Of a DNA stretch of 63,965 bases, positions 1 through 63,965 are shown one piece after another. The stretch is from a virus: the IMG/VR virus record IMGVR_UViG_3300045988_132111; one strand, written 5' to 3'. The notes below the pieces were generated by a model. The model saw only the letters and a program-made list of their open reading frames with translations. It ran no database searches and was not told the DNA's origin. Position 1 is the stretch's first letter. Every line of letters begins with the position of its first letter. Made by a program: the position numbers and the translations under genes.

Positions 1-73
1 CCTTTTCACCCTTAACGCCCTGAGGACCTTGTGGACCTTGTGGACCGGTTGCTCCTCCTGCTCCATCAACGCC
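1..73 (-). repeat. collagen-like Gly-X-Y run, N-terminal end (continues at 63931..63645)
   Basis: The coding-strand frame reads [24 protein letters not shown]. nt 1-34 are identical to nt 63932-63965. Confidence 0.9.
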
Positions 74-4997: not shown

Positions 4998-4999
4998 TA

Positions 5000-10900: not shown

Positions 10901-12025
10901 ATTGCGAAATTCAGATACGTTATTGATAATGTTGCTGAAGAAATCACTGACATTAGACCACATTTCTTTTGCTTCTTCGAAATCACCGATGATGAGCTGC
11001 CATGATGTAGTCCAACCAGACCCCATAGCCTCTTTTAAGGTGTCTATAAGCTGACGGAATGTCTTTACTTTTGTGGCTGCGTCATTAGCAGTTTTTGCCA
11101 TGTCAGCCATCTGAGTTGCTTCTTCTTTGGTGTATCCCTGCTCCACAAACTTTTTGACAGCTGCTTGATACTCTTCTTGTGTCTCAGCTGCCGTAGCAAA
11201 CTGATCCAAAGTCTGAGTAAGAACCTCTGTAGTCAACCACCCAGTGCTGAGAGATTCTCTGAATGAGCCATTAGCTTCTATAGCAGCCTTAGCTCCGGTC
11301 TGAAGATGTTCGGACGTTCTGGTTAAAGCGTCTTGAAAGACCTGTCCACCCATTCCGGCATTTACTACAGAGTTCCAGTCCATAAGCTTAACAGTTCCAG
11401 AAGCAAGCGCCTGAGATAACTGATACATAGCGGTTGAAGCCTGTTGAGAATTAGAGCCAGACACGGCTGCAAGGTTTGCTATACCTTTAATTGCAGATAC
11501 AGAATCGTCCAGTTTTACACCAGCTGCGGTGAAGGTACCGATATTCCTTGTCATCTCAGTGAAATTGTATATTGTTTTATCCGCGTATGTATTCAATTCA
11601 CGAAGGGCGGCATTGACTCTCTCTACATCGGTGCCCTCTTTCTGAGTATTAGCTAAGATTGTCTGTATCGCATTCATCTGAGTCTCATATTCTGTCAGAC
11701 CGTCACGAACAGGATCTATTGTGATAGCTGAAATCATCGCTTTAGCCGAATTAACCACAGAATTGGTAATATTAGCTAAAGCGGTAACTCCCATAACTTG
11801 AAGTGCGGAAAATTTAGCAGAAACAACATCGACGCTTCTACCTAAAGCATTCATGTTTACTTTCTTTGAGGCATCCCCCAGCTCTTCAAAACCCTTGGAA
11901 GCGCCTTTTAAATTCAACTTCTGTTTAAGTTTATCCAAGGTTGACATACTTGTCTTAACGTTTTGCTCAAAGTCTTTATTATTGAATCGCATTTCGACGA
12001 CTCGTTCATCAACAACTGCACTCAT
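5000..12025 (-). CDS. tape measure protein (2341 aa from the ATG at 12025)
   Basis: Largest ORF, in the canonical position after the chaperone genes. It has an alpha-helical N-terminus, a long multi-TM hydrophobic core and internal repeats. I prefer the ATG at 12025 (GGAGGTGA RBS, ATGA overlap with the upstream stop) over the track start at 12046. Confidence 0.9.
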   Translation of the reverse strand: MSAVVDERVVEMRFNNKDFEQNVKTSMSTLDKLKQKLNLKGASKGFEELGDASKKVNMNALGRSVDVVSAKFSALQVMGVTALANITNSVVNSAKAMISAITIDPVRDGLTEYETQMNAIQTILANTQKEGTDVERVNAALRELNTYADKTIYNFTEMTRNIGTFTAAGVKLDDSVSAIKGIANLAAVSGSNSQQASTAMYQLSQALASGTVKLMDWNSVVNAGMGGQVFQDALTRTSEHLQTGAKAAIEANGSFRESLSTGWLTTEVLTQTLDQFATAAETQEEYQAAVKKFVEQGYTKEEATQMADMAKTANDAATKVKTFRQLIDTLKEAMGSGWTTSWQLIIGDFEEAKEMWSNVSDFFSNIINNVSEFRNDVLKSALGKGFTELANKITGVTEPVNKAIAAVEDLGSVVDDVLAGKFGNGDERFNALTEAGKNYYAVQNKVNEALGCTFRYTEDQIKAQDEALGTTTAETGATTELTDEKKKLIKEIANLSEEEMRAKGYTEDQINAFKELKTTAEKLGIPLNDFIDNMDQINGRWLLLQSFVNIGKSISAVVGSIGKAWTDLHGALSVDDLGDKLFNAIGAFHSFTASLIPTDETLGKLERTFKGVFAILDIISTVAGGTAKLAFRGLNAVLNAFDLDLLDVTAGIGDAAVAFRDFLFSNDLVNKGFEALGSGVKMAVEAFADLVDAIENIPQVQEFIENFKNIDWSEIGSNVVEGLKNGLEAGISSVPDILIEIGQSMLSAIKGVLGIHSPSTEMYDIAKNAIAGLVNGLKDGITDAASALNDVGSNLLSEARKLDWGRIFTIGSIGASVIAGIVTINKLINVMDKFATPFEKFGKILGTVNESIKTITESFSKNLKAKAFKTRAEGIKSMAIAIGILAASIYALAQLDQGALARSVAAVAVLSGILVVLALVVNKLSKATVTLDSEGRALKLDGLKTGLAGIGVALLMLAAVVKIMGGMKPDEMMQGFIGLAGVIVAISIVLKTFGKCVKGESAKNIDKAGIMIKKMSVALILMVAAIKFIGLLSAEDLVKGIAFMGVFIVFTGLLSAVTRLSGKGVNKLGGMMAKMAIAMALMVGVCKLAGMLSAEEMIKGAVFALGFIIFTAALKRAIKSKDDAKYLKMAGVITSMALALTMIVGVCKLVSMLSAGELIKGSVAVVAFGALLVALVNTVKATGPEATKIGGTLLAMTAAIGILAGICVLMSLMDVKSLAKGLTVVGLLSGMMTAMVWATRGASDCKKNLVVMTATIAVMAASVAALSLLDSSKLIGATACLSALMATFALMSKALGAAGSSIKSMVVMTVVVGALAGIVYMLAQLPVETTLPTVAALSALMLSLSASMLVMSKAGNMSARAVVAAAGMAFVVTALGAVITLLSQNGMMNVPLDAVVSLSALLLALSTSCVILSKVGPMAGAAASGALKLMGVLGIVSAVILGVGALVSHFVDESALDKLVTTLSKLGEALGTFFGSIIDGFLNGATDGLPEVADNLKEFINTFTGIDNNAAEKVNSLINALSALGSASLKNAIASFLGYGLGDFGAQIGDFADQMNTAAEAVAGISDPGLDNLKAIADIGQLFGELQSTIKPTGGIIKKIADYNLGNFGFQIKGYARNLKQASSAVAEISDTGLTNLGTIADIGTAFAKVQNTIEPTDGLVTLISEKSLGDFGWDIGSYAINLDQAASFVAQISTDGLTNLGKIANIGTAFSELQSTLDPTDGIVTWLSENGLGDFGEQISAYATNLNTAATAVAELSDVGITNLGTIADIGTVFSDLQKSVGDATDLFDILTNNTLDGFGEKVKTYAENVKKASDAVSGENAIDEEAVTKAKNVGELLLAFQESIPEEGWLSAKVDLDEFAERINSFASAIGALNDAAEKGDLGKTETAISFAEKLRDFTESVTDAQMAQLNNFPDLVGQVGTAIANYYTSLNEVDTSAVTSSVNAVYRLKSFISSLSNFSSDGIKNFKVEELGQSLSDYAGKVVSMDFTQIAGSLTVASRLATFIKGLSGLDTSGVSSFKKAVSTLGQTDTSNVAKAFSSASGDITSAGNSIVESLSKGISSKSSEATSAASGVIDKMNSEIMHKASVFLAAGTALILKLAAGIRENSSYAESAANSAVSNAANSIRGFYGSFHESGSYVGIGLINGLNSQYQAVYNAGYRLGQAAILGERAGQQSHSPSKLAEQSGVWVGEGLIIGVDSMGSKVYEAGESLGENVTSSLSSVISKASDLFEMSMDAEPVISPVVDLTNVKAASNSMDSMFSDLSIGTNANLRAVDVMMSNRGQNGNSDVVAAINRLGKKLSNMGNTYNSIDGVTYDESSSVSNAIQTLTRAVVVEGRR
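6580..7430 (-). repeat. about 4.5 tandem 64-aa (about 192-nt) repeats inside the tape measure
   Basis: Units: ISDPGLDNLKAIADIGQLF.., ISDTGLTNLGTIADIGTAF.., ISTDGLTNLGKIANIGTAF.., LSDVGITNLGTIADIGTVF... Each is followed by ..LGDFG..Y(A)xNL..A..V(A). Boundaries are approximate. Confidence 0.75.
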
Positions 12026-12399
12026 AGATTGGTCACCTCCTTCCAAGCAGCCTCGGCGATTTTGTCAAAAATAGGCTGGATCGCAGGATTAATATAATCT
12101 CTCCCTTGAACCCAGCCTCCTGTTCCAGTCCCATGACCATTCTGTAGAATGATCGCAATAGGAACACCTTTATTGACATTTGTGTTCTTAAACACTATAG
12201 CCACCGATCCATTTTGACGTTCTATTTCATATGTCCATGATGCGGCAGTCTTACCAGTTTTTACAGGTGTAGCGGAAGCAAGAGCGGCCACGCCTTCTCG
12301 GCCGTACTTATCCAACACACCGAGTTTTGTGACTTCTCTCAGCCTCTCAAAGTATCGAGACAGTTTTTTAAAGTCGCCTTTCTGTTCGAAACTTATCAT
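12022..12399 (-). CDS. HK97 gp10-like tail/neck component
   Basis: 125 aa. The segment ATPVKTGKTAASWTYEI matches the P-x-x-TG-x-L/A pattern of the gp10 family, from memory. Confidence 0.45.
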   Translation of the reverse strand: MISFEQKGDFKKLSRYFERLREVTKLGVLDKYGREGVAALASATPVKTGKTAASWTYEIERQNGSVAIVFKNTNVNKGVPIAIILQNGHGTGTGGWVQGRDYINPAIQPIFDKIAEAAWKEVTNL

Positions 12400-38474: not shown

Positions 38475-38655
38475 TCTTCTCCTCCAATGCTTTAATTGCC
38501 TTATGCAAAGCCAGACTAAATGTGAATCTAATCATAGATTTCATATCCGCCCTTGGTGCTGGTGTATTTTTTATCATATTCCGTAGAATATTAGCTGCTT
38601 CTTGATCTGTCATAGCCGTCTCGAAAAATTCAAAATCATCTTTACTTAATTCCAT
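38464..38655 (-). CDS. hypothetical protein
   Basis: 63-aa ORF that overlaps the helicase stop. Confidence 0.5.
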   Translation of the reverse strand: MELSKDDFEFFETAMTDQEAANILRNMIKNTPAPRADMKSMIRFTFSLALHKAIKALEEKNGN

Positions 38656-39881
38656 TTGGTAAATTTCCTTTCATTGAACTTCTTTTTCTTATCAAGTGCT
38701 TTGCTAATCGCCAGGTCAATGCCGCTTCTACTCTTCAGATGGTAGTAATATAAATCCTTAAACGGTGTATTCAGTCTGTCGATTCTGCCGCAAGCCTGTT
38801 TCATTACTTTGTAGCTGTAGTTTTGTGAGAAGAATATAATCGTGTCTGTTTTAATACAATTCCATCCCTCACACCCCGCAGTGTACTGAACCAAATACAC
38901 CCAATGTTTGTTATCCGGAACGGGCATGTGAGCGTGTCCTGACCATTCAGCTACCTCGAAGCCGATGTATTCATCGTCACTAAAGAGATGTAACAACATA
39001 TCACGCTCATAATCAAAATTGTAAAATATAATAGCCCTTGGAGTTTTCTCTAAAATCTCCATCAGAGCTATTACCCGAGATTCGTCCTCATTCACAATTC
39101 TTCTCAGTATGTAACATAGCTGAGATGCCTGACCAATTGGTTCATTTTTAAATGGGTCCCATCTGTTCCGGATTACGCCTTTGTATTTCGGAATATCATA
39201 CTTACAATATACGTCCAAATGGTGTGGAACAGTGCTTCGTTCTAACTTGATATCAACAAGAATACTGTCCCGTAACCGAACAAGTCTTCCCGTATTCAAA
39301 TACCGGTCTATCTGAGGGTATTTTGTGAATCTGGAATATACCACATGCTCTCTTATGAACTCCGTTTTATTTTTATAGAATCCGTTAGCGATGAATACCG
39401 GAATATAATCAGACCATGTGTCACCCGGAGTAGCTGATAGAATAATCCAATGGTTATGTTTAGCTATTTTAAGAAAAGCTTTTACCCATGCTCCAGAACC
39501 ACACACTCTATCCTCATCAAATATAAAGAACGCCCCCGTTATATCTGCGTATTTTTTGATGTTGTTCCAGGAATCCACCACAATACTCTGTCCCGGATAC
39601 AAAGTATTTAACTCCGAGTTTGTCGACATACGATAATTTGAGATCTCTGAGTCCCATTCACAACTGTCTCTTTTCATAGCAGTCGTGATGATGTATAAAT
39701 CCTGTGGTGGCTTTTTCATAGGTACAAAAGACTGATCTATAAAACTACCACCATTTTCTTTGAAATAATAATATAAACCAGTCCGTGATTTCCCTGTGCC
39801 AACACCGCCGTTGAGTATACAGCCGTTCTTCATTTTATTAACGGCATCCATCTGGCAATCACGTAGGAATTGGTTAGACAT
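38646..39881 (-). CDS. SF2 (DEAD/SNF2-like) helicase
   Basis: Walker A GVGTGKS, Walker B FIFDEDR, motif III LSATPG, motif VI QACGRIDR. Confidence 0.8.
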   Translation of the reverse strand: MSNQFLRDCQMDAVNKMKNGCILNGGVGTGKSRTGLYYYFKENGGSFIDQSFVPMKKPPQDLYIITTAMKRDSCEWDSEISNYRMSTNSELNTLYPGQSIVVDSWNNIKKYADITGAFFIFDEDRVCGSGAWVKAFLKIAKHNHWIILSATPGDTWSDYIPVFIANGFYKNKTEFIREHVVYSRFTKYPQIDRYLNTGRLVRLRDSILVDIKLERSTVPHHLDVYCKYDIPKYKGVIRNRWDPFKNEPIGQASQLCYILRRIVNEDESRVIALMEILEKTPRAIIFYNFDYERDMLLHLFSDDEYIGFEVAEWSGHAHMPVPDNKHWVYLVQYTAGCEGWNCIKTDTIIFFSQNYSYKVMKQACGRIDRLNTPFKDLYYYHLKSRSGIDLAISKALDKKKKFNERKFTKWN

Positions 39882-40394: not shown

Positions 40395-40707
40395 CTTCTA
40401 TTTCCTCCAATATAAATCCATCTTCAACTTCCGCAATATATTTTTTATCAGGGAATTCATTAACAGTCATCTTAGGACCACATGCAAGAAACAACATAGC
40501 AACGGTCAATTCTGAATCATTGAACCTTTGCTTATAAAATTCTTTGATTTTTTGATAAGCAGAAGGCGTTATGCAAATTTTTCGGCAGTCAAAGGTGTGT
40601 TTTTCATCATCATACGGTACATCATAACCGAGATGTTTCGCTACGTTTGCATAGAACTTATCCAGTGGACAGTAGCATTCTTCCTCTTTTAAAAATATAG
40701 TCTGCAT
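40384..40707 (-). CDS. hypothetical protein
   Basis: The ATG at 40707 overlaps the RadC stop (TAATG). Confidence 0.5.
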   Translation of the reverse strand: MQTIFLKEEECYCPLDKFYANVAKHLGYDVPYDDEKHTFDCRKICITPSAYQKIKEFYKQRFNDSELTVAMLFLACGPKMTVNEFPDKKYIAEVEDGFILEEIEDEN

Positions 40708-41174
40708 TATAAAATTCCTTCCTCCGCAAAACTTTTGTATACCCAATCGCCAAGAATGATAGAGTCGACAAAAGGAATACCTAACAATTCGCCAAGTTTC
40801 TTTAATTCATTACTCACATTTAGGTCTTCTTTACTTGGCGTAGGATCGCCAGATGGATGATTATGAACCATTATCATTTTAGCGGCATTGGACAGCAAAA
40901 TTTTTTGTGCTATACCACGCCGGTCTACGAGACATGTATCGTTGTTCCCAATACCAATTTCAAAAAAGGCTTTTAATCTAAATTTCATGTTAAAACTCAA
41001 TAAAAATACATGTTCTTCAGAATATGTATCCCATTCCATAGTACGGCATAATTGATATACTTTTTCACTATTGGTAAAGCTATTTTCTATTTCTGGGATA
41101 TACTTTGAGAACACCAGATCCAAAGTAACGAATCCATTTCCATTGAGCCTCGTTTCGTATTTTCTTATATTCAT
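40707..41174 (-). CDS. radC: RadC-like JAB/MPN domain protein
   Basis: MVHNHPSGDPTPSKEDL is a JAMM motif. The ATG at 41174 is used because the track extension translates a terminator repeat. Confidence 0.85.
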   Translation of the reverse strand: MNIRKYETRLNGNGFVTLDLVFSKYIPEIENSFTNSEKVYQLCRTMEWDTYSEEHVFLLSFNMKFRLKAFFEIGIGNNDTCLVDRRGIAQKILLSNAAKMIMVHNHPSGDPTPSKEDLNVSNELKKLGELLGIPFVDSIILGDWVYKSFAEEGIL

Positions 41175-41197
41175 TATCGCCCTTTCATTAGAAATTA

Positions 41198-41226
41198 AAA
41201 GAGCCTCAGCTATTTCTAGCCAAAGC
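41198..41226 (-). terminator. 29-bp repeat copy 1 (GAAA-tetraloop hairpin)
   Basis: aaagagcctcagctatttctagccaaagc. The coding strand folds as GCTTTGGCTA-GAAA-TAGCTGAGGC followed by TCTTT. Confidence 0.6.
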
Positions 41227-41285
41227 CCTTTTACGGTAAACAATTCTACAATTATGAATCTTCAGAGACTTGTTTTTATCGCGTA

Positions 41286-41765
41286 TTACTCTTCGGGACT
41301 TTCTTCCTCAGCATATCTCGCGGCAAAACGATCAATATTCTGAGTTACCTCCATAGCTGATAAATATGCCGCACGACCGTTCTTTCCGCCAAACTCCCAA
41401 TCATATGGACGAATATCCATGTTCACACTCTGAATATCAATCTCGTCGAGCATAGCAATCATCTCCTCGTCGATAAGATTATGAGCCTCCCCTGTGAGAA
41501 GATAAACTTTCGGACCACGAGCATTGAATTTCACTTTGATTGGAAGATACATGAATGGACCTTCTTCCTCGTCTCTTGGAGGATTGACTTTTACATTCCA
41601 CCCTTCGGCAGTCAGTCTCTCAGCAGTCTCCTCGTCTGGAATAACCATAGCGAAATTTCTATCACCCTCTCTGTTATACTGAGACGGAGCGCCTGCAAAG
41701 TTTCTAAAGATGATTCTTGCACCATCTACTTGAATGTTACCATTGTTTAAAAATCTTAATTCCAT
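41286..41765 (-). CDS. candidate ssDNA-binding protein (gp2.5-like)
   Basis: Acidic C-terminal tail (YAEEESPEE). The segment ..IRPYDWEFGGKNGRAAYLSAMEV recalls the T7 gp2.5 C-terminal strand pattern. It lies next to the replication genes. Confidence 0.4.
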   Translation of the reverse strand: MELRFLNNGNIQVDGARIIFRNFAGAPSQYNREGDRNFAMVIPDEETAERLTAEGWNVKVNPPRDEEEGPFMYLPIKVKFNARGPKVYLLTGEAHNLIDEEMIAMLDEIDIQSVNMDIRPYDWEFGGKNGRAAYLSAMEVTQNIDRFAARYAEEESPEE

Positions 41766-42278: not shown

Positions 42279-42560
42279 TTAAAACAGTGGTATCAAACCC
42301 TCGAATATAATTTTGATATCATGTTCGTTAATTGGAATTAGTGTAAATGATATGTTCTTTTTCTTCCATACAAACCTCTGTCCTTCAATAGTTCTTGGAA
42401 AACCCAACCCGTCAAAAGCATCGTTCAATGACACCCATGAGCTATGTTCCAATCTACTTTTTAGATTGTTTTCTACGATTTGAATAAACATTACATTTGC
42501 TTCCCGGCTGTTTGTCCAATATGGAACATCTTTGTCATATACCCTTTCTATTCGTTTCAT
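42279..42560 (-). CDS. stand-alone copy of the LxDxYDxLG..GW C-terminal module
   Basis: VSLNDAFDGLGFPRTIEGQRFVWKK. The ATG at 42560 lies downstream of box P6. Confidence 0.55.
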   Translation of the reverse strand: MKRIERVYDKDVPYWTNSREANVMFIQIVENNLKSRLEHSSWVSLNDAFDGLGFPRTIEGQRFVWKKKNISFTLIPINEHDIKIIFEGLIPLF

Positions 42561-42578
42561 AAAAATATCACTCCTTTC

Positions 42579-42606
42579 TCGTAATAGAGACTGTATTTTA
42601 CGCGAA
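42579..42606 (-). promoter_or_regulatory. promoter-like box P6
   Basis: Coding strand: TTCGCG-TAAAATACAGTCTCTA-TTACGA. It overlaps the polymerase stop codon. Confidence 0.5.
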
Positions 42607-45600
42607 CGGAATTTCTTCTGGCGCATCTTCTGGAATGTTCATAAAATCCTCAAGTCTCGGTGGTGAGGTATAGGGGTCATCAGATACGAACCATTCAAAG
42701 TCACCGTACTTGGATATGGCTTCTACCGCATCATCCACAAGTTTATCATAGAATGAACGGTCAATAAACTCGTCATTTCCGCCGTTAAACATGACATCGG
42801 ACTCCAACCAACGGTACCCAGTGGTTCCAGTTGCTGCGTAGTATTTACCTTCTTGTTCTCTTACAAGAACTCCGCCACCTTTACCAGTTTTAACCGGACA
42901 GAACTCCCCAACCTTTCCCACAAAGTGATAATCATGACCTTCTGCTATTTTTTCAGCAAGCTCTGTAGCTTCGGGTTCGAATAGTGTATCAGACAATTTG
43001 CCTTTTTTGTAATCGTTCTCGATCTTCTCCAAACGCTTCTCATATCCAGATACATCTGGAAGTTTCTCATTCATATCCAAATATAAAGCTGATTTTACAG
43101 AGAATGTTTCGCACATATCCCGAATGTCGACAGGTTCTTTGCTAAATAATGTCTTAAATACATATGGTACCGCAAACTGCTTACCTGTAGCTGTCCATGG
43201 GTCTTTAATGTGATCCGCATTGTCTCCTGGAATATATCCATATAACTGCTCGCATTCTTCTGGCTTTTTGTATTTGGCAATATAAACCGCGTTATTCACA
43301 AGGCACATACGGTCATAGGTCGCCTCGTGTTCGAATGTATATCCATATCTCTTACCAAAGTCCATAACAAATTTGATAATCTCTGGTGTGGCATCTGGAA
43401 TCTTGATTGAGTCTGTCTTAATATGTGCAACAGTAAAACCTCGTTTCTGAACCTCATTCTTCAGATCTACCATGAACAGTGCGCCTCGTTTAGCCACAAT
43501 GTTGTCCTTATTACGAATATCACGGAACGCATTGTCGAATTTGGCTGAAGTTAGGCCGTATACAGAGTTAATTGCTGTCTTTAGTGCATTAGCCAAATCC
43601 TTAGCTGTCATTTCACCATCAATTACCTTCTGGATATAAGGCGTCAACTTCCCGTCAAGCATATGATTGACCTCGTCCCAGGCTTTATGTTTTATACTCA
43701 CACGACCCTCAACGATGTCACGGAACGCCTTGGTATATCTCACTCCAAATAAGACTTCAGCAATCGTACTGTGAGGATGCATGGAAGCAATGTCCAGCAA
43801 CGCGACATTTCCATACGTACCAGGCTCTGCATATACATACCCACCTTCTCCGACTTCTTCTCCTCGATAGATTGAGACTCCGTTTTCGTATCTATATCCC
43901 GGAAAATACGGAAGTAATGACCCCGCCTCCCCATGGGTTTGACTCATCATTTCAGGACACGCTTCAGCAAGGAATTGATATGTATCCTCATCCAAGTCGA
44001 GCACTGGTTCTGCAAGATTCCGATAATGGAACTCATTCTGAGGGTTCTTATTATTTCCAAATATAAATTTTGTTGTGAGCGTATTTGTGGTGTCATTCAC
44101 ACTCATCCCTGCGAGATCTGCCAGAATCTGTCTTGCTGTCCAATCTGATTTCAAATAATAAAAGCCCGCCTCAGTAGCAATAACATCGTCATCGCAATAC
44201 TCAGCAACCTCTTGCCATCTTGATTCTGGAACTGGCTGATCCCACGGAAGTCCAAGCTCATGATGTTTAATGCCTTTCAGCATCTCTCTTAGATCATCGT
44301 CCATCTTAGATTTTGGATCGTTTGCAACATTACTCATCTCAATCTCAAGTTTTTTCAGACTCTTTTTATTACCAGCTGAGGCGAAGTCGTAGACATCCGT
44401 ATAAGAAAGATTGTATGCCTCGCCGAATGTGTACTTTTTTTTTTCGCCTTTTTTTGTGTTGATGATATGCTGGGAAAGTTCATATATCTGCTGATTGTCA
44501 TAACCGAGCATGCAAGCATAAAGCATGTGATTATCGTACTGTCTGCAGTTAAATCCAATCAGCCTGTATTTTATAAGCTCTGCGATATCTGTTGGTCTTG
44601 GATTGATAAGTCTGACAATAGGTTTATCTTTTCCTTGAAATTTCCAATTTACAAGAAATAGATTAGGAAATACCTCACAATCAAAAAATATAATAGGCTT
44701 TTCTACATCGCCTGTGGTATTGGGAGCAGCTTCTTCAGACTTGAATTTCATTTTAGACACAAGCTTGATACAAAGGTCAGACTGATTTGAACTTTGGGCT
44801 GCGAAAGCGTACACAGCGTTCTTCATATCGGATACATCATAGCTCATGCCGCTGTTGTAAGCATCTTCAAGTACTTTATAAATGAAGTCCACGTTCGGTT
44901 TAGTCCCCTGGGGATGAACTTCTTTTGCTAAGCACTTCTTTATAGTTGTTCTCAGTCCCTTTTCAGACTGAATAATATCTGTACTTATCATTTTTTCCTC
45001 CTTCATTGGTAAACCTGAACTGATTGTTGCTATCAACAAAGAATTACATAAAGTAAGTTTTCTTCTGAGTGAGCTGTTGCCAGTAAACACTTTGATCTCA
45101 ATGTCTTTGTCGTATATTCTGGAAAGCTTAGATACGTCCCCTTTGTAAATATAATGAAGATGTAATCCAGCACCACCCTTACTTACCTCAGCATACGTAG
45201 CAGGCCATTTGCTGGCGGCTTCCAAATTCTTCTCAAGAGATTTGTTTCCATCCTCGTCTTTGAGATCGAAGTCGATTACGATCAACCATTCTGGAACTTT
45301 GACATAATGAAGCTTAGAAACATCCAGATCTTTGAGTTTGGTCTTGACTTTCGTCCATCCCTTTCTTGGGGTTTCGTCCGAGTTAGCGTACTGAGCGGGA
45401 GCGTCGCTACAGAGATCCTCGAAAGGTCCAATTTTTCCAACTTCAGATTTCTCAAGTTTGATCCATGAAGCTCTTCTGCTTTTATCATCATCTCTTACCT
45501 CTTTTACTTTTTTCTCAAAAATATCACTGCGAAAACCGCTATACACGTTCCTTGAACCGGCGCCATCATTAAAGGTCTCTGTGAACTCCCGAAAATAGTT

Positions 45601-46809
45601 CTTCAACTCCTCTTTAAATGTTCTTTGAGAAAATGGATACGGAACTCTTGCATCCTCGCAATAAACCTTATACATCTCCCACGCAGCTTTAAGAGTTGTT
45701 CTATCGTCCTTTTTGAACACGCGAAAAGAATCCACCACAAAGTTATAGAAGTCGTTAGATGCCCCCAACATTGCTATTGGTGTATAGTTGTCAAATGCGC
45801 CTGGATTCTCCAAATATACTTCCTTGCAATGGTATGCTATTCCTCCAAGTTCGAATGTCACCTGATCCATCGCTTCCTTATATTCTCTCGGATTGAGCTT
45901 GTTGCCAGATGGCGATACGTCAATAAGTCTTCGGATCAGACCAGACTTTCCATCTGTAATCTTTACCGGCTTATTAGTTCCCATAAATAGAAAAGCATTA
46001 AACCGGTTAGAATATGCAGATTTGAATTTCTCATTAACTGTCATGAGCTCGTGAGAAACAAGACTGTTTAATCGGGTGTTGTCTTCAATTCTTGATAGGT
46101 CGCCGTCATGCTGAATAGCGACCAGTGGATTGGTTTTGAATGCCTCTAACGCAAAAGAGTTATTACTCGATCCCAACGCCTTAGCATCAAATACCGAATA
46201 ATAACCCTCAAACAAAGCTTGTATGATATTTAAGATTGTAGATTTACCTGTTCCTGCGGCACCGTAAAGTACCATAAATTTCTGAATATATTTTGAATCA
46301 CCTGCAACTATAGATCCGATGGCCCACTCAATTTTTCTTCTCTCTTCTTCAGAGTATAAAGTAGAGATTAATTTGTTGTAAGCAGATATATTTCCCTGTT
46401 CCAGTGGATATGGAAGCTTTTTACTGGCATAATCAGTTTTTTTAGTCTCCATATTGGAAAATATCAATTCCTCATCAAGTGGATGATAATTGTCTCTAAG
46501 CTGTTTTTGACAGTATTTATGCCAATCGTCGATCATTCCAGAAGTAGCATCCCACATATACAAAGTATGTACCGATTCGTTTCCGGAATTTTCTTTGTAT
46601 TTTATTGTGAAATTTTTAAGCTCTCTGTCAATCATATCAATGACGTCCTGCTCATCGGTTGACCATAGACCATTTTCTTCGACCCAGACGGCATAGAAAT
46701 CTCCACCTCGAATCATGAGATCAGATGATTTTTTCATTACAAAGTTTGGATAGATTTCAACAACACCCTGCTTTTTAGAACGCGTGGAAATCCTTACAAA
46801 ATCAAGCAT
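42598..46809 (-). CDS. SF3 helicase (D5/P4-type NTPase) + AEP primase-polymerase + family-B DNA polymerase fusion
   Basis: Walker A LYGAAGTGKST (res 181-191). AEP motifs VIDFDLKD and GGAGLHLHY (res 511-554). Exo I FFDCEVF (710-712), Exo II FNCRQYDNHM, Exo III YCDDDV. Pol A LLDIASMHPHS (1006), Pol B KTAINSVYG (1077), Pol C HIKTDS (1131). Confidence 0.8.
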   Translation of the reverse strand: MLDFVRISTRSKKQGVVEIYPNFVMKKSSDLMIRGGDFYAVWVEENGLWSTDEQDVIDMIDRELKNFTIKYKENSGNESVHTLYMWDATSGMIDDWHKYCQKQLRDNYHPLDEELIFSNMETKKTDYASKKLPYPLEQGNISAYNKLISTLYSEEERRKIEWAIGSIVAGDSKYIQKFMVLYGAAGTGKSTILNIIQALFEGYYSVFDAKALGSSNNSFALEAFKTNPLVAIQHDGDLSRIEDNTRLNSLVSHELMTVNEKFKSAYSNRFNAFLFMGTNKPVKITDGKSGLIRRLIDVSPSGNKLNPREYKEAMDQVTFELGGIAYHCKEVYLENPGAFDNYTPIAMLGASNDFYNFVVDSFRVFKKDDRTTLKAAWEMYKVYCEDARVPYPFSQRTFKEELKNYFREFTETFNDGAGSRNVYSGFRSDIFEKKVKEVRDDDKSRRASWIKLEKSEVGKIGPFEDLCSDAPAQYANSDETPRKGWTKVKTKLKDLDVSKLHYVKVPEWLIVIDFDLKDEDGNKSLEKNLEAASKWPATYAEVSKGGAGLHLHYIYKGDVSKLSRIYDKDIEIKVFTGNSSLRRKLTLCNSLLIATISSGLPMKEEKMISTDIIQSEKGLRTTIKKCLAKEVHPQGTKPNVDFIYKVLEDAYNSGMSYDVSDMKNAVYAFAAQSSNQSDLCIKLVSKMKFKSEEAAPNTTGDVEKPIIFFDCEVFPNLFLVNWKFQGKDKPIVRLINPRPTDIAELIKYRLIGFNCRQYDNHMLYACMLGYDNQQIYELSQHIINTKKGEKKKYTFGEAYNLSYTDVYDFASAGNKKSLKKLEIEMSNVANDPKSKMDDDLREMLKGIKHHELGLPWDQPVPESRWQEVAEYCDDDVIATEAGFYYLKSDWTARQILADLAGMSVNDTTNTLTTKFIFGNNKNPQNEFHYRNLAEPVLDLDEDTYQFLAEACPEMMSQTHGEAGSLLPYFPGYRYENGVSIYRGEEVGEGGYVYAEPGTYGNVALLDIASMHPHSTIAEVLFGVRYTKAFRDIVEGRVSIKHKAWDEVNHMLDGKLTPYIQKVIDGEMTAKDLANALKTAINSVYGLTSAKFDNAFRDIRNKDNIVAKRGALFMVDLKNEVQKRGFTVAHIKTDSIKIPDATPEIIKFVMDFGKRYGYTFEHEATYDRMCLVNNAVYIAKYKKPEECEQLYGYIPGDNADHIKDPWTATGKQFAVPYVFKTLFSKEPVDIRDMCETFSVKSALYLDMNEKLPDVSGYEKRLEKIENDYKKGKLSDTLFEPEATELAEKIAEGHDYHFVGKVGEFCPVKTGKGGGVLVREQEGKYYAATGTTGYRWLESDVMFNGGNDEFIDRSFYDKLVDDAVEAISKYGDFEWFVSDDPYTSPPRLEDFMNIPEDAPEEIPFA

Positions 46810-48272: not shown

Positions 48273-49181
48273 TCACATGAGATCGTAGATATTGCCGTCT
48301 ACATTGAAATCAAGAAGAATAGTACGTTCGTAACCGTTTACAAAATCTCTGTTCGAAGCTCTATTGGTATCGTAAATACCAAAATCAACGAAATTATCTC
48401 CAACTGGATGTTTTTCATCGTACACCCAACCAATGACCATTCCGTCTTTTGTGCGAGGAATTCCAAGCATATCGTACACGTCATTCAGTAACAACCAACC
48501 CTGCTGTTTCAGGCGCTTTGTAGCTGCATCCTGCTGCATACGAAGAAACATGAGATTAGCTTCTGAGTCCTTAGTCCAACCGGAACATCCATCATCATAA
48601 AATTTTGCATACGGAGAATATGTATTTGGGTCAGCAAGTTCGATTGTTTTCTTTTCTACAACCTCAGTACCGTCCTCACTTACGACAGTTTCCTCTACTT
48701 CTTTAGCTTTGATGTTATATTTGAGTTCGCGATCAAGCTCCTTACCGAATCTCTCGATTACACGTCCACGATATTCTTTAAAGCTTTTGTCAACTGCTGT
48801 GTATGCTGCTGCGAGAGCAATATTCCTCTTTCTAAGGATGTTATTTGATGTAAGAATAGCAGTGATAGATAATCCTCCAAGCACTACAGATGGACCATAC
48901 AGCTTAGCAATATCAAGGGCTGCCTTACTGTAAATTAAAGTCAGAGTTTTCTTTCCTTCTTCCTCTGTGTAGTTCGCTTCATCTGCATGGAAATCCTCTA
49001 CTTTTTCTTTTGTGTCAGTCAGCGTGTCATTGAGCTTCATAGTAGCTTTACAAGCCATGACCGCGCTTGTTACAACTCCAACTACACCTGCTACAATCAG
49101 GATTTCCGGACTGTGTTTTTTTAACTTGAAACCAGCTTTATTGATTGCTCTGGTTACATTTGCCATGTTAAATTTTTTCAT
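48273..49181 (-). CDS. TM-anchored protein, paralog family member 1
   Basis: N-terminus KKHSPEILIVAGVVGVVTSAVMACKAT. C-terminus LLLNDVYDMLGIPRTKDGMVIGW. Confidence 0.65.
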   Translation of the reverse strand: MKKFNMANVTRAINKAGFKLKKHSPEILIVAGVVGVVTSAVMACKATMKLNDTLTDTKEKVEDFHADEANYTEEEGKKTLTLIYSKAALDIAKLYGPSVVLGGLSITAILTSNNILRKRNIALAAAYTAVDKSFKEYRGRVIERFGKELDRELKYNIKAKEVEETVVSEDGTEVVEKKTIELADPNTYSPYAKFYDDGCSGWTKDSEANLMFLRMQQDAATKRLKQQGWLLLNDVYDMLGIPRTKDGMVIGWVYDEKHPVGDNFVDFGIYDTNRASNRDFVNGYERTILLDFNVDGNIYDLM

Positions 49182-50426: not shown

Positions 50427-51242
50427 TTACATTAATTTTGAGAAATCGTATTTTGGCGCGACATGATATTCCAAGGTGATGCACGGTCGGTTATCTTTTG
50501 CTATCATAGTGCCATAACTAATCTCGACCAAACCATCATCCAAATTCCACCCAAGCTCATCACTTATATCAGTATGTTCGAGATCCAGTTCGTCATAAAA
50601 TTCGCTTAATGAGACATACATGTCGTAATTTAAAGAACGGTTTATCTTATTCACAGCAGTCTCAATTTCCTGTATACTAGATTCAAAATATCGTCCAGAT
50701 ACACCATCATAGCAAAGCTGTTTACCGTTTCCAGTGATGATAACCTGACTGTCATTTACAGGATTATTATCGAGCTGTTTTTGTGCCACCCTATCTTTGA
50801 TTGCCTTGGCTTTTTCTTTTCCTACTTCTTCAATGGTAGCTTCCTTATATTCTGTGAGTGCTTTTTCAGATAACTTATAGGCTGTTGCTATAGCTGCATT
50901 ACGTTTTGAATGTACAGTATTAGCTCCAACGATGCATGCGATAGATGTCGCACCAGATATAGCCGCCGGAATATAACATTTCCAGGTTGCTTTGACTACT
51001 TCAGGTTTGGTTAGTTTAAACATGGTATCTAACTCAGAATATCTATGGTCGCGATCGAATTCCTCTTTCTTATTCTTTTCAACTTCTTTGATTTTTTCCA
51101 TGGCCTTAGGTGTAGCTTTTACTGCCAGTACAGTAGTTGTAATCATTCCGGCAATACCAAAAGCAATAAGAATCTCTGGACTTTTTTTTTCGACTGCTTT
51201 TTTTACTGTGTTGAATATTTTCATTACGTTTGGTTTCTTCAT
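50427..51242 (-). CDS. TM-anchored protein, paralog family member 2
   Basis: N-terminus EKKSPEILIAFGIAGMITTTVLAVKATPKA. C-terminus VSLSEFYDELDLEHTDISDELGW. Confidence 0.65.
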   Translation of the reverse strand: MKKPNVMKIFNTVKKAVEKKSPEILIAFGIAGMITTTVLAVKATPKAMEKIKEVEKNKKEEFDRDHRYSELDTMFKLTKPEVVKATWKCYIPAAISGATSIACIVGANTVHSKRNAAIATAYKLSEKALTEYKEATIEEVGKEKAKAIKDRVAQKQLDNNPVNDSQVIITGNGKQLCYDGVSGRYFESSIQEIETAVNKINRSLNYDMYVSLSEFYDELDLEHTDISDELGWNLDDGLVEISYGTMIAKDNRPCITLEYHVAPKYDFSKLM

Positions 51243-51456: not shown

Positions 51457-52287
51457 TTAAAGCATCTGTAATTTTGGCGAATTTGGATTGTTGGCATAAT
51501 ACTCCTCTTCGCTTTCATAATAGTCATCATAGTTTACCCGCGGCTCAAATGGCATCTCGATGATATAAAACTCAGTACCGTCTTTGAGTTTTGCCCTACG
51601 ATGATTAAATTCAATCCAATATTCTCCTTCATCAGTTGGCGCCCAGCCAAGAACCTCTCCAAAGTCGGTAGAGGATAAACCAAGAAAAGAATATAATTCA
51701 TTTAGAATAACACTTCCGCCCAATGCGTAGTTTCGGTTTAAATGGTATTCGGCATTTTGTACTTGTTCCACCGTAGCTCTAAAGAATCGCTTCGAATATT
51801 CTTCGTAGAATAATACCGGTCTTCCAACCGATTTATCTGAAGATATGTCACAATCACTGCATAAATAAGACGCTTGAATGTGCACTTTTTCAGCCTTTTC
51901 TACAGCAATAGCCTCAATTATCCTCTGATCCGCTTCCTCTCCATATAATTCTTTCAACTTTCTACGATAATCTTTGTAAGACTGATCTAGCAAGGCGTAT
52001 GCACTCGCCATAGATGCTTGCTGGTGCTGGTTAAGAATTTGTGCTCCGCAGATGCAGAATATAGTCGCCGAACCGGTCAATATCACAGGCAAATATGTAA
52101 GAGCCACTGTCTCGGTTTTCTCTAGTACAGTAAGCTCCTCACCTTTCTCCAACTCAGCGTTAGCTAGCAGCCGCTTTGCTTTTGGTGCTGCTTTGGCAGA
52201 TAACACTGCAGTTGCCACAACATCAGCGCATCCAAGTACAGTCAGTATGGTGGATGAGTTTCTCTTGAAAAATAACTTTGGCTTCAT
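51457..52287 (-). CDS. TM-anchored protein, paralog family member 3
   Basis: N-terminus RNSSTILTVLGCADVVATAVLSAKAAPKA. C-terminus VILNELYSFLGLSSTDFGEVLGW. Confidence 0.65.
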   Translation of the reverse strand: MKPKLFFKRNSSTILTVLGCADVVATAVLSAKAAPKAKRLLANAELEKGEELTVLEKTETVALTYLPVILTGSATIFCICGAQILNQHQQASMASAYALLDQSYKDYRRKLKELYGEEADQRIIEAIAVEKAEKVHIQASYLCSDCDISSDKSVGRPVLFYEEYSKRFFRATVEQVQNAEYHLNRNYALGGSVILNELYSFLGLSSTDFGEVLGWAPTDEGEYWIEFNHRRAKLKDGTEFYIIEMPFEPRVNYDDYYESEEEYYANNPNSPKLQML

Positions 52288-59140: not shown

Positions 59141-59363
59141 TTTACTACACCATTTACTACACCATTTTTACACCAAAATACGATATTTTGCGATACTTTA
59201 CGATAGGCATAAAAGCCCGCAAACCCGCATAAATACTGGATTTTTAGGAATTTTTAAACTGCAATGTATATTCTTAACTTTTTCTTAAAGATTAGTTCCA
59301 AAAAGCCAGTAAAATCAAGGGTTTTCAGACTATAGGTCTTTTTACTACACCACTTTTACACCA
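59141..59363. other. candidate attP region with arm-type repeats
   Basis: TTTACTACACCA occurs at 59141, 59153 and 59341. TTTTACACCA occurs at 59166 and 59354. CGATA occurs at 59181, 59191 and 59201, exactly 10-bp phased. Confidence 0.5.
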
Positions 59364-60493
59364 TTTTGATTTTCCATCTTTTTCATCTCATCAAATAAAG
59401 TCTCATCTGAAACATGACAGTATAAATCCATTGTCATCTGTAATGAGCTGTGACCTAATATTTTTTGAAGTGTTTTAGGATTCATCCCATTTTCTATAGC
59501 TCTTGTTGCGAAAGTATGTCTAAATGCATGTGGAGTGAATTTTTTTATACAAATTCCATCAGCTTCCATTTTATTTAGTATCTCGTTTATTGCGTCAATT
59601 GCTGACACCTCCTGAAAAGGTTTGCCACTGCTTGTAGGGAATACCAGGTCTTTGAAATCCCAACATTTGCGTTTTTTAATTCTAGTTTCGTTTAATAGCT
59701 TTTGACGTATAAGCGCATCAATACATACATTTGTAAGTGGAATTAATCGTTTTCCATTAAATGTTTTCGGATCATGAGCTTCGAAATAGTAGCCATTTTC
59801 TCCATGTATATGACACATCGTTCTTCTTACGTACAGTGCTCGTTTTTCGAAATCTATATCACTCCAGTACAGCCCTTTTAGTTCCCCGATGCGCATTCCA
59901 GTTTCAAGAGCTACAACGAATAAATTATAGTATCTATGGCCTTTAGCGTATGTAAGGAATAATTTAGTTTCTTCAATTCCAAGAACTCGTCGCTCTTTTG
60001 GTGTCTCTTTATCAATTTTAGTTATAAGATCTTTTGCAAAATTCCGCGGTACCAAACCATTTCTTTTCGCTTCCATAAATAAACCATTCAAAACTACTTT
60101 GACCCTGACTCTCTGGTGATTGCTTTTCAGTTTATTCAACTCCGATTGCAATATCACAGGGTTTAGCTTCTGTATTTTTTCACGACCGATTCTCTCTTTT
60201 ATAGATTTATACGCTATATCGTAGGCGCTTAATGTTGTATTTCTACAATTTCCTTTACATGTGGTTATCCAAACCTTATACCATTCGTCTAATGTCATGT
60301 TACTTTTTACCAGATTTACTCCATTGTCATCAGCAGTCTGGGCTTTTCGCATTTGGGTTCTGAGATTGTTTAGGTTCTTATCATATAAAGTTTCCCTTTT
60401 TCCAAAGCGATTTGTGAATCTAGCTTGATATAAGCCGTCTTGTCTTTGAGTGATACCGATACCCAGTTCTTTTCCTTTTAGTGATTTTCCCAT
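59345..60493 (-). CDS. int: tyrosine integrase
   Basis: HAFRHTFATRAI and LGHSSLQMTMDLYCH form the R..HxxR..Y catalytic signature. The N-terminus is SAM-like. Confidence 0.9.
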   Translation of the reverse strand: MGKSLKGKELGIGITQRQDGLYQARFTNRFGKRETLYDKNLNNLRTQMRKAQTADDNGVNLVKSNMTLDEWYKVWITTCKGNCRNTTLSAYDIAYKSIKERIGREKIQKLNPVILQSELNKLKSNHQRVRVKVVLNGLFMEAKRNGLVPRNFAKDLITKIDKETPKERRVLGIEETKLFLTYAKGHRYYNLFVVALETGMRIGELKGLYWSDIDFEKRALYVRRTMCHIHGENGYYFEAHDPKTFNGKRLIPLTNVCIDALIRQKLLNETRIKKRKCWDFKDLVFPTSSGKPFQEVSAIDAINEILNKMEADGICIKKFTPHAFRHTFATRAIENGMNPKTLQKILGHSSLQMTMDLYCHVSDETLFDEMKKMENQNGVKVV

Positions 60494-62000: not shown

Positions 62001-63965
62001 CTAGTTTAAGTTAAGTTTTCTTTTGAGTTTTTCGTTTTCTTTTTCTAATTCACTTACTCTTTGATTGAGTTCTTGCATTGACTTCACAACATATGCGAGC
62101 ATCTGCAAGTTGTTGACAGATTTATAATATGGGTGTCCATCAACTTCTCCGCCACCATCGACAAGGTTAGGATCAAGCTGTTCGAGTTCGTCTGCTATAA
62201 AGCCAATCTTGTATTTCTTATGAGAATCTTTTCGCTCGAAAGAATGAATTTTCATTGATTCTATAACTTTGGTGGCATTTTCTACTTCAGTGTCTCTTAT
62301 GTTACCTTTTAGTCGAATGTCGGAAAGAGCTGTGCTACATACCCTTCCGAGACTAAACCATTTCCACGATCCATCAAGTCTGGTTTGAATCCATATTGAT
62401 CCAGCGTACGAATCTCCGTGGTAAATAAAAGCTCTATTTCCAGCCACTTGAGCGCCAAGATAAATCCCTACAGCAGTCTTCGAACCTGAACCTCCCACAT
62501 TGAACCCAACGTAAATGTTTCCGAAATTTCCGTCAATTGCCAGTGGGATTATTCTATTGTTGGCGTCAAAAAAGCCAAAGAAGTTTTCATCGCCTGTACC
62601 CGTTGCCGCACCAAAGCGCCAATCTACTGATCCTCTATTGGACTGATATTCGAAGGTTGTATTTATTATGTTATTACTCTGAATATAACCGCCAATGAAC
62701 ATGTTACCATTGGTTGTTATACCTTTTCCGTTATATGCCCGAATCCAATCGGCATCCGTCATATACCAGCCACCACCATAATCCTCGCTATACCATCCTG
62801 TAGTACCGCGCGATCTAAACCAATTAGATGCATATATGGTATTAGTATTCATGTCTACAGTCGCAGTTATTGTTTTTCCCTGAACTTTGCCAGTAGTTGT
62901 AATGTCGCCGCTGTATAGATTCAGACTACCATACATAGTGATTGTTTTATCAAAGAACTCGAATCCAGCCCCACTTTGTGCACCGGCAGCATTGAGTAAT
63001 TTTCCAACTCGTACAGAAGTTCCATCGTAATAAAGAACCCTTTCGACATCATCAGTGTTTTTACATGACAACGAGATTTCTTTTGTAGCGATGATTCTTT
63101 TAGCAACAACGTCTGCACTCGTTAATGTCAAACCGCTAATAGTTCCTGTTGCCGTAATGTTTTGCGCAAATAAATCGGCAACATCAATCTTGGCGGCTGT
63201 AACAGACAATGCAGCTATTTTCTCTGAGGTTACAGCAGCGGCTCCTATTTTGTCAGCAGTAACTGAATCAGCTGCAAGCTGAGTTGCTGTAACAGTTCCG
63301 GCATATAATCGTCCTCCGTTGATATAGGTACGATCATTGTTGTAACACCAGTTGGCTATTCCCATGTCAGCAGAACTTGCAAGGGAATAGGCATCGTTCC
63401 AATTACCCCATGTCGTATTATTAATGCCGACTCGCCACAACTCACGATTCTCTATCTTTGCCGTCTGTTTAGGATATCCTCCAGAACTATCTTTCCATGG
63501 AACATATGTTGTTAATAAACAATAACTTTCACCAGATAGACCAAGTGAACTAGCCAATTTTAGCTCATTCACTGTTGTCATCGGATAATTCTGTATATAC
63601 CAGATTGGAGATTGGTTGGTGTTTCTGGTATCTTTAACATCAAGACCATCCCCCTTTGGACCTTGAACACCCTTAACACCCTGAACGCCCTGAGGACCTT
63701 GTGGACCGGTTGCTCCCTTTTCACCCTTAACGCCCTGAGGACCTTGCAGACCTTGTGGACCGGTTGCTCCCTTTTCACCCTTAACGCCCTGAGGACCTTG
63801 CAGACCTTGTGGACCGGTTGCTCCCTTTTCACCCTTAACGCCCTGAGGACCTTGCAGACCTTGTGGACCGGTTGCTCCCTTTTCACCCTTAACGCCCTGA
63901 GGACCTTGTGGACCTTGTGGACCGGTTGCTCCCTTTTCACCCTTAACGCCCTGAGGACCTTGTGG
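62001..63965 (-). CDS. tail fibre protein, C-terminal part: collagen-like region, receptor-binding region and S74 intramolecular-chaperone domain
   Basis: The Gly-X-Y frame from 63931 reads without a stop through ..[27 protein letters not shown] into the track ORF 62001..63581 (MTTVNELK..). The C-terminus is [45 protein letters not shown]. With 1..1588 the protein totals 1172 aa. Confidence 0.8.
63645..63965 (-). repeat. collagen-like Gly-X-Y run built from near-identical 54-nt tandem units
   Basis: The unit encodes GATGPQG(L/P)[10 protein letters not shown]. Full units lie at 63716-63769, 63770-63823, 63824-63877 and 63878-63931, plus 1-54. In total there are 40 Gly-X-Y triplets (63645..63931 plus 1..73). 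Confidence 0.9.

Follow-up and report, generated by a model that had tools for sequence, protein, structure and literature searches.

The 1403-aa protein encoded on the minus strand of a 63,965-nucleotide viral sequence (IMG/VR record IMGVR_UViG_3300045988_132111; "the window" hereafter means this whole stretch of DNA), by the open reading frame (ORF) at positions 42598-46809, is an under-annotated member of a known, biochemically validated architecture. Judging from alignments, profiles and structure models, we consider it very probable that this protein serves as the replicase in a presumably temperate Blautia siphophage and is orthologous to GP55 of Lactococcus phage 1706, with the same domain order and all of the residues that are essential in GP55; its activities are here assigned by homology. 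An initial annotation, made from the DNA sequence and its translations, had proposed that a helicase, a primase and a DNA polymerase of family B (PolB) are joined in this single chain, and had left open whether the exact domain order had been described before. The joining is borne out by the sequence motifs, by the predicted folds and by the collinearity with GP55. The possible novelty of the order did not hold up, as the fusion of an SF3 helicase, an archaeo-eukaryotic primase (AEP) and a PolB in gp55 of phage 1706 was predicted by Kazlauskas, Krupovic and Venclovas (Nucleic Acids Research 2016, PMC4889955), who called such a single-polypeptide fusion an "ultimate testament" to helicase, primase and polymerase being coupled, and was shown biochemically by Zhang, Lu, Zhu and Huang (Nucleic Acids Research 2025, PMC12205980), who purified GP55 as one polypeptide, a "four-in-one replicase".

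Relationship to GP55

In a tblastn comparison with the gp55 coding sequence, the replicase aligned collinearly from aa 6 to aa 1370, that is over 97% of the length, with 38% identity (E=0, 798 bits). Both proteins have, in the same order, a D5_N-like domain, an SF3 helicase, a PriS-like AEP, an alpha-helix domain (aHD), a 3'-5' exonuclease and a PolB, and both have KTDS as polymerase motif C, although the replicase is 86 aa longer than GP55. Identity to GP55 differs by module, being highest in the AEP domain (60%), followed by the exonuclease and polymerase (50% each), the aHD (46%) and the helicase (32%), with 22-28% in the N- and C-termini. In the AlphaFold2 (AF2) models, low-confidence linkers at residues 433-447 and 606-612 coincide with domain boundaries of GP55, for which constructs with boundaries at 439 and 689 were made.

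The DNA polymerase activity of GP55 extends primers at 1.25 nM enzyme, is independent of the AEP domain and is lost in D949A or on deletion of the PolB domain, while its 3'-5' exonuclease activity is abolished by D712A/E714A (PMC12205980). Its helicase depends on UTP or dTTP rather than ATP, drives strand displacement and is lost in K189A; its RNA primer synthesis, for which initiation with GTP is preferred, is lost in D509A, and de novo synthesis requires both nucleoside triphosphates (NTPs) and this same AEP residue (PMC12205980). Priming further depends on the aHD, a new type of domain with Y655 and F667 as its essential residues, and the protein is a dimer (PMC12205980). In the family alignment, GP55 K189, D509, Y655, F667, D712, E714 and D949 correspond to K189, D515, Y657, F669, D710, E712 and D1006 of the replicase, with identical amino acids at all 7 of the 7 positions.

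On this comparison of sequences, it is highly likely that the replicase is a GP55 ortholog belonging to a known family; its architecture is not new. Some points weigh against this reading: the activities are attributed by homology, the replicase shares only 38% identity with GP55 as a whole and 32% within the helicase, and the AEP assignment falls short of curated or significant thresholds in all profile tests made here. The UTP/dTTP dependence, the GTP-initiated priming and the dimerization may not transfer from GP55; the helicase nucleotide preference and the priming specificity of a gut-phage ortholog with 38% identity could differ from those of the lactococcal enzyme.

Gene call and integrity

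The ORF starts with ATG and has 0 internal stops over 1403 codons in the ORF listing of the window. A Shine-Dalgarno sequence (AGGAG) lies 13 nt upstream of the start codon, and the homologs, with their invariant D3 and F4, back the choice of start. PHROG 4210 matches the protein end to end (aa 2-1382, E=0, 1902 bits); an open frame of 1403 codons in DNA of 40% GC, together with this match, is far beyond chance. A string search of the ORF recovered each of the nine motifs quoted in the initial annotation in one copy, and in the order given there, namely helicase, AEP, exonuclease, and polymerase A, B and C (Table 1). The single polypeptide that it described is thus intact at its coordinates, to which we add that the coding strand is the minus strand.

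That annotation had also raised the concern of a missed stop or frameshift, in which case the long ORF would be a product of faulty assembly or sequencing, with a separate helicase-primase gene run together with a polymerase gene. The NCBI protein database holds an entry identical to the replicase, labeled "DUF5906 domain-containing protein [Blautia glucerasea]", and 44 further clusters at 90% identity, each of 1403 aa, are 98-100% identical to it and stem from independent assemblies of four sources (NCBI, ENA, JGI and Logan). In addition, 252 phage genomes carry a collinear full-length homolog, and GP55 could be produced and purified as a single polypeptide (PMC12205980). Because the same 1403-aa product recurs in dozens of independent assemblies and has 252 collinear phage homologs, an artefact is hardly conceivable, and we take the replicase to be one continuous protein.

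For the assignment of domains, we used a family profile and conservation set of 13 sequences from diverse phages, with further sets of 36 and 47 homologs. The catalytic residues of the helicase, AEP and PolB modules are invariant in all three sets. When the replicase was scanned against Pfam as a single sequence, DUF5906 and a weak match to Pox_D5 (aa 354-416) were the sole matches, with no PolB model and no AEP model matched. A phmmer search of PDB with the single sequence returned spurious matches to armadillo-repeat proteins and was discarded; the family profile was needed instead.

Helicase module

The N-terminal part of the protein is supported as a D5/SF3-type helicase, in agreement with the initial annotation, by the Pfam DUF5906 match together with fold matches. 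DUF5906 covers aa 181-294 (4e-13, 50.4 bits), which is above the cutoff of 27.6, and it is matched in 36/36 family representatives. The TIGR01613 model, which describes the C-terminal region of P4-family primases, matches the helicase with 3e-15, yet stays below its curated cutoff. The family profile retrieves the primase-helicase of SaPI5 (7OLA) with 1.2e-9 over profile positions 135-439.

For aa 1-700, AF2 gave a model with a mean predicted local distance difference test (pLDDT) score of 82.8. A Foldseek search with this N-terminal half gave 7OLA, 8IQI, 9ILZ, 8APL and 6K9C with E-values from 5e-11 to 1e-8, the structural partners being the SaPI5 primase-helicase, African swine fever virus (ASFV) PrimPol, monkeypox virus (MPXV) E5, vaccinia D5, the C-terminal region of NrS-1, and PriRep1. 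Ahead of the ATPase core, the first 130 residues form a beta-rich domain (pLDDT about 85-93) that Foldseek aligns to the D5_N-like region of 7OLA, in an alignment of ~415 columns with a TMt of 0.59. Invariant helicase residues comprise G186, G188, K189 and T191 of Walker A, D235 of Walker B (for which D237 is listed as well), the asparagine N279 of SF3 motif C/sensor-1, and R293/R294 at the position of the arginine finger.

Primase module

The proposal of an AEP prim-pol in the initial annotation is supported by invariant motifs and by Prim-Pol matches that recur but stay below threshold, with the primase role itself known experimentally from GP55. Motif I (D513-x-D515) and motif II (S543 and G546-x-G548-x-H550) are invariant across the clades of the family, and downstream of motif II so are E571, K573, R582 and R583, of which E571 occupies the position of the acidic motif III. 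The phrog_3022 family ("DNA primase") matches aa 480-575 with 1e-4, and in the family-profile alignment, motifs I and II lie on the AEP domain of 7OLA. Among Pfam families, Prim-Pol ranks first for this region in 10/13 members (best E 0.003, below threshold) and is matched in 6/36 representatives, and AEP-TOTE turns up in 3/13 members; on the replicase itself, Prim-Pol reaches E=0.037, and its 14.9 bits fall short of the cutoff of 22.8.

One could therefore ask whether the region is a true AEP at all, or whether the DxD and GxGxH motifs resemble those of primases by chance. Besides the low Prim-Pol score, such a reading would draw on two hhalign comparisons with shallow profiles (effective number of sequences about 2): that with NrS-1 N300 covered 17 columns, motif II only, at a probability of 32%, and that with a 9-sequence profile of BFK20-type Prim-Pol domains gave a probability of 3%. 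A PDB search with the profile of the AEP domain and the aHD likewise found no AEP, its best match being a lactococcin immunity protein (E=0.029), and a homolog search seeded with the Prim-Pol domain of BFK20 had 0 matches. As a further AEP seed, the "DNA primase" of the satellite Javan70 was tried and dropped, since it contains only D5_N and the helicase. The region has pLDDT values of 86-93 in the AF2 model, and the Foldseek list of the N-terminal half is taken up by helicase matches. A chance resemblance would, however, leave unexplained why Prim-Pol is still the leading Pfam family in most members, why the motifs are invariant across clades and why, in the profile alignment, motifs I and II match the 7OLA AEP domain, and why GP55, whose domain was superposed by its authors on the NrS-1 PrimPol (PDB 6A9W), loses RNA primer synthesis in D509A (PMC12205980). 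We regard it as very improbable. On the sequence side, the AEP assignment rests on the invariant motifs and the recurrent sub-threshold Prim-Pol signal, and its decisive support comes from the GP55 literature.

Between the putative AEP and the exonuclease lies the aHD, a primase accessory domain for which the AF2 model has four helices (616-627, 636-652, 660-671 and 677-685). The family profile search found no significant sequence relative of this domain in PDB. Its best match there, the four-helix-bundle Lactococcin-A immunity protein mentioned above, probably reflects helical composition and not homology. Pfam accessory domains of the PriCT or HBD type have no match in the replicase, whereas the same models identify HBD in NrS-1 and PriCT_1 in Javan70; in GP55, the aHD stands in for the HBD, just as the replicase has no HBD or PriCT match.

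Exonuclease and polymerase modules

The C-terminal half is supported as a PolB with 3'-5' exonuclease by profile matches and Foldseek, as the initial annotation had it. Invariant in the 13 diverse phages are D710/E712 of Exo I, Y758/D759 of Exo II and Y871/D875 of Exo III, in agreement with the patterns DxE, Nx2-3F/YD and Yx3D of these motifs. In polymerase motif A (D1006-IAS-M-H-P-H-S), the D, S, H, P and S residues are invariant, with His in place of the Tyr of DxxSLYPS, and in motif B, of the pattern Kx3NSxYG, K1077, N1081, Y1084 and G1085 are invariant; in the family profile, motifs A and B align to those of Pol II, KOD and Pol alpha. The profile retrieves Escherichia coli Pol II with 4.9e-7, as well as archaeal PolBs and Pol alpha, in alignments that span motifs A to C. 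The AF2 model of aa 690-1403 has a pLDDT of 87.6 and a predicted template modeling score of 0.80, and in PDB its best 50 Foldseek matches, with E-values between 4e-13 and 8e-11 and a probability of 1.0, belong without exception to PolBs; these are of the RNA/DNA-primed kind, with KOD/9N/Tgo, Pol alpha, Pol II and the ASFV polymerase among them. Matches in the viral structure library BFVD are PolBs of phages and of eukaryotic viruses. Pfam DNA_pol_B is weakly matched in 12/36 relatives and in the replicase itself is undetected.

These data also bear on the question of how the polymerase is primed. In one alternative, the polymerase is protein-primed (phi29-like) or primer-independent (piPolB-like) and the AEP-like domain is not the replicative primase; the PolB module does begin straight with the exonuclease, without the N-terminal domain of RB69-type and archaeal PolBs; moreover, the authors of the GP55 study aligned its PolB with that of phi29 and found phi29-like strand displacement (PMC12205980). 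Motifs A to C are nevertheless spaced by 71 aa (A-B) and 54 aa (B-C) and align contiguously with Pol II and archaeal PolBs, which leaves no room around motif B for insertions of the size of TPR1/TPR2. No phi29-type polymerase occurs among the best 50 Foldseek matches in PDB or in BFVD; a terminal-protein gene was not searched for. Finally, GP55 synthesizes de novo only with NTPs and an intact D509, and it relies on the helicase domain for strand displacement. We thus give protein-primed or primer-independent synthesis only a very small chance, if a slightly larger one than a chance resemblance of the AEP motifs, and favor a polymerase that extends primers made by the AEP.

The lysine of motif C

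In motif C, which was aligned on the DTDS of Pol II, archaeal PolBs and Pol alpha, K1131 takes the place of the first aspartate while the second (D1133) is kept, so that one of the two aspartates of DTDS is present. The initial annotation was correct about this substitution, which is no peculiarity of one gene, however, but a trait of the whole family: K1131, T1132, D1133 and S1134 are invariant in the 13 diverse phages, and H-x-K-TDS is found in nearly all of 124 long representatives, a few of which have S or A at the first position and none of which has D. GP55 has HVKTDS at residue 1076.

The replaced aspartate could mean that the PolB is impaired or inactive, as in the PolB-helicase fusions of polinton-like viruses, and that DNA is made by the AEP PrimPol or a host polymerase instead. 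Inactivated fusions of that kind exist (PMC5499653), and the weak or absent DNA_pol_B signal in the family would fit with this. According to a structural review, motifs A and C of PolBs each contribute one catalytic aspartate; the metals of Pol delta are touched by D608 and D764, whereas D762, which is the first Asp of DTDS, is conserved without being one of the two ligands (PMC4142720). K1131 thus stands in for an Asp that is not a metal ligand, and the catalytic pair of D1006 and D1133 is retained. In addition, D1006, D1133, motif B and the Exo residues are invariant, which is unexpected for a decaying domain, and GP55, with the same KTDS, is an efficient polymerase whose activity is lost in D949A or on deletion of the PolB domain. 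An inactive PolB is as improbable in our view as a spurious primase. The motif-C lysine very probably does not inactivate the enzyme, and is a family-wide trait compatible with activity.

The text of the GP55 paper makes no mention of motif C, KTDS or DTDS, and we found no mechanistic study in the literature of any PolB with Lys at the first position of motif C. That the invariant K1131 is a functional adaptation of this replicase family and not a neutral substitution is a tentative idea that we think rather unlikely. If it has a role, K1131 might, for example, position the 3' end of an RNA primer that is handed over from the AEP site; alternatively, it might offset electrostatically the missing carboxylate near metal A, with an altered selectivity for metal or sugar as a result.

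Distribution and related systems

A tblastn search of 50,697 phage records matched 263, of which 252 cover at least 80% of the replicase in one collinear piece. The phages with homologs include those of Arthrobacter, Gordonia, Streptomyces, Microbacterium, Curtobacterium, Lactococcus and Faecalibacterium. With the polymerase module alone as the query, we obtained 1184 representatives at 50% clustering (398 at E <= 1e-30), and the fused form is the norm for the family, because the best 150 of these representatives are almost all 1240-1450 aa long. The full replicase is matched by >8000 clusters at 90% identity, and >1000 homologs of GP55, mainly from phages associated with humans, had been reported (PMC12205980). 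A megablast search with 40-50 kb against deposited phages returned no near-identical genome.

Among the annotated relatives are full-length orthologs with 43-56% identity, labeled "DNA primase/polymerase" in actinobacteriophages (Arthrobacter, Gordonia and Streptomyces BI/BK clusters) and "helicase/polymerase" in Faecalibacterium phage FP_oengus. These labels name only part of the predicted activities. Their phages belong to the same supercluster as the genome studied here, and also share its gene for a YonO/RdRP-like RNA polymerase. In the homolog of Streptomyces phage Bing, an intein or intron was considered and rejected, as what looked like a second "piece" belongs to a small ORF of its own: gp60, of 151 aa, matches the N-terminus of the replicase and is present in Bing in addition to the full-length gp64 (positions 283-738 and 3006-7058 of the Bing sequence). 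This gp60 may be a duplicated fragment of the replicase.

Outside the family, several known systems share part of the design. Vaccinia D5/MPXV E5, ASFV C962R PrimPol, the SaPI5 protein of 7OLA and NrS-1 also have a D5_N-like domain, an SF3 (DUF5906) helicase of the same fold and an AEP in one chain. In these primase-helicases of the D5/P4-alpha type, however, the AEP precedes the helicase and a PolB is absent, while in the replicase the AEP follows the helicase and the PolB is appended; the helper domain also differs, being an aHD in the replicase and PriL, HBD or PriCT in the D5/P4-alpha type. Pas55 of the Actinoplanes phage phiAsp2 is the other known case of a helicase, primase and polymerase in one polypeptide, but it combines an SF3 helicase with a DnaG-type primase and a family A polymerase (PolA), and is therefore an analogous, independent fusion. 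For the PolB module, the nearest fold neighbors outside the family are the compact stand-alone PolBs of siphoviruses (~600-760 aa, such as that of Lactococcus phage P087), with TM-scores of ~0.5-0.6 and E-values down to 3e-21; these share the compact layout of exonuclease and polymerase at 13-16% identity, without a fused helicase or primase.

The main value of these results lies in annotation, since proteins now labeled "DNA primase/polymerase", "helicase/polymerase", "DNA polymerase" or "DUF5906 domain-containing protein" can be named GP55-like helicase-primase-polymerase replicases. The family is large. Since it is abundant in phages of the human gut, replication by a self-contained replicase is common among them. 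GP55-like replicases are also candidates for primer-free isothermal DNA amplification.

Proposed mode of action

If the properties of GP55 carry over, the SF3 helicase would unwind the duplex and lend strand displacement to the polymerase, with UTP or dTTP as the fuel. On the single-stranded DNA, the AEP together with the aHD would make short RNA primers de novo, with a preference for starting with GTP as in GP55, and the PolB active site, with D1006 and D1133 as its two metal ligands, would extend them, while the exonuclease residues D710/E712 would proofread. The replicase is probably dimeric, like GP55, and one subunit may prime while the other extends in trans. From its genomic setting, it would be expected to work with the neighboring single-strand annealing protein (SSAP), RadC-like protein and second helicase.

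Genomic context

The window is a siphophage genome, in which, besides the replicase, a terminase, a portal, a protease/capsid protein, tail proteins, an endolysin, a tail fiber and an integrase are encoded, with almost every gene on the minus strand (Table 1). The SSAP, the RadC-like protein and the second helicase lie downstream of the replicase gene in an arrangement that is syntenic with phage 1706 (gp66, gp67) and FP_oengus; phage 1706 has the same setting of its replication module, with an SSAP and a second helicase downstream of gp55. An identical replicase sits on a 273.9-kb contig of Blautia glucerasea. Because of the tyrosine integrase and this occurrence of the replicase on a Blautia contig, the data suggest a temperate phage or prophage, with Blautia in the gut as its setting, in contrast to the virulent lactococcal phage 1706, in which GP55 is found.

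Table 1. Modules and motifs of the replicase, and other features of the window, with their coordinates and the evidence for them.
Feature	Residues (aa)	Window position	Strand	Evidence or remark
GP55-like helicase-primase-polymerase/exonuclease replicase (predicted), whole ORF	1-1403	42598-46809	minus	ORF listing, PHROG 4210, 1706 gp55
N-terminal beta-rich domain, ahead of ATPase core	1-130	46420-46809	minus	AF2 and Foldseek
SF3/D5-type helicase core and C-terminal helical region	131-440	45490-46419	minus	Pfam, TIGR01613, 7OLA profile, Foldseek
Walker A, LYGAAGTGKST	181-191
Putative PriS-like AEP primase catalytic domain	455-605	44995-45447	minus	Invariant columns, phrog_3022, Prim-Pol, GP55
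AEP motif, VIDFDLKD	511-518
AEP motif, GGAGLHLHY	545-553
aHD, primase accessory	606-690	44740-44994	minus	AF2 helices, residue mapping, GP55
3'-5' proofreading exonuclease subdomain of PolB	700-900	44110-44712	minus	Invariant columns, GP55, Foldseek
Exonuclease motif, FFDCEVF	708-714
Exonuclease motif, FNCRQYDNHM	753-762
Exonuclease motif, YCDDDV	871-876
PolB polymerase subdomain (palm, fingers, thumb, C-terminal region)	901-1403	42601-44109	minus	Profile, Foldseek, BFVD
Polymerase A motif, LLDIASMHPHS	1004-1014
Polymerase B motif, KTAINSVYG	1077-1085
Polymerase C motif, HIKTDS	1129-1134
Motif C, KTDS	1131-1134	43408-43419	minus	Aligned on Pol II DTDS
YonO/RdRP-like single-subunit RNA polymerase, 970 aa		23532-26444	minus	phrog_4291 end to end, E=0
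Second helicase		38646-39881	minus	phrog_62; downstream of replicase
RadC-like JAB-domain "DNA repair protein"		40707-41243	minus	Downstream of replicase
SSAP		41286-41765	minus	Downstream of replicase
115-aa ORF resembling C-terminal third of phrog_2152		42279-42626	minus	Overlaps replicase 3' end by 29 nt
Three full-length phrog_2152 paralogs (function not annotated)		48273-49181, 50427-51242, 51457-52287	minus	Upstream of replicase
Tyrosine integrase		59345-60493	minus	phrog_1, 1e-66

The YonO/RdRP-like protein has matches of the helix-turn-helix type at both ends, and phrog_4291, which covers it, is an "RNA-dependent RNA polymerase"-like family. A gene of this type has been described as the signature of the supercluster that unites actinobacteriophages with phages of Lactococcus and Faecalibacterium (preprint, bioRxiv 10.1101/842583). 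The tape measure protein (2348 aa, minus strand, 5000-12046) has an endolysin-like stretch at aa 354-458. Both ends of the window (1-60 and 63870-63965) lie inside a region that codes on the minus strand for a collagen-like Gly-X-Y repeat; its initial and its final 34 nt are identical, and repeat units are found again at 63872, 63878 and 63926. The window is probably a circular assembly that was broken within the collagen repeat of the tail fiber, from which a true terminal repeat is indistinguishable. The GC content steps from ~41-44% in the structural half (1-27000) to ~36-40% in the early/replication half (28000-63965).

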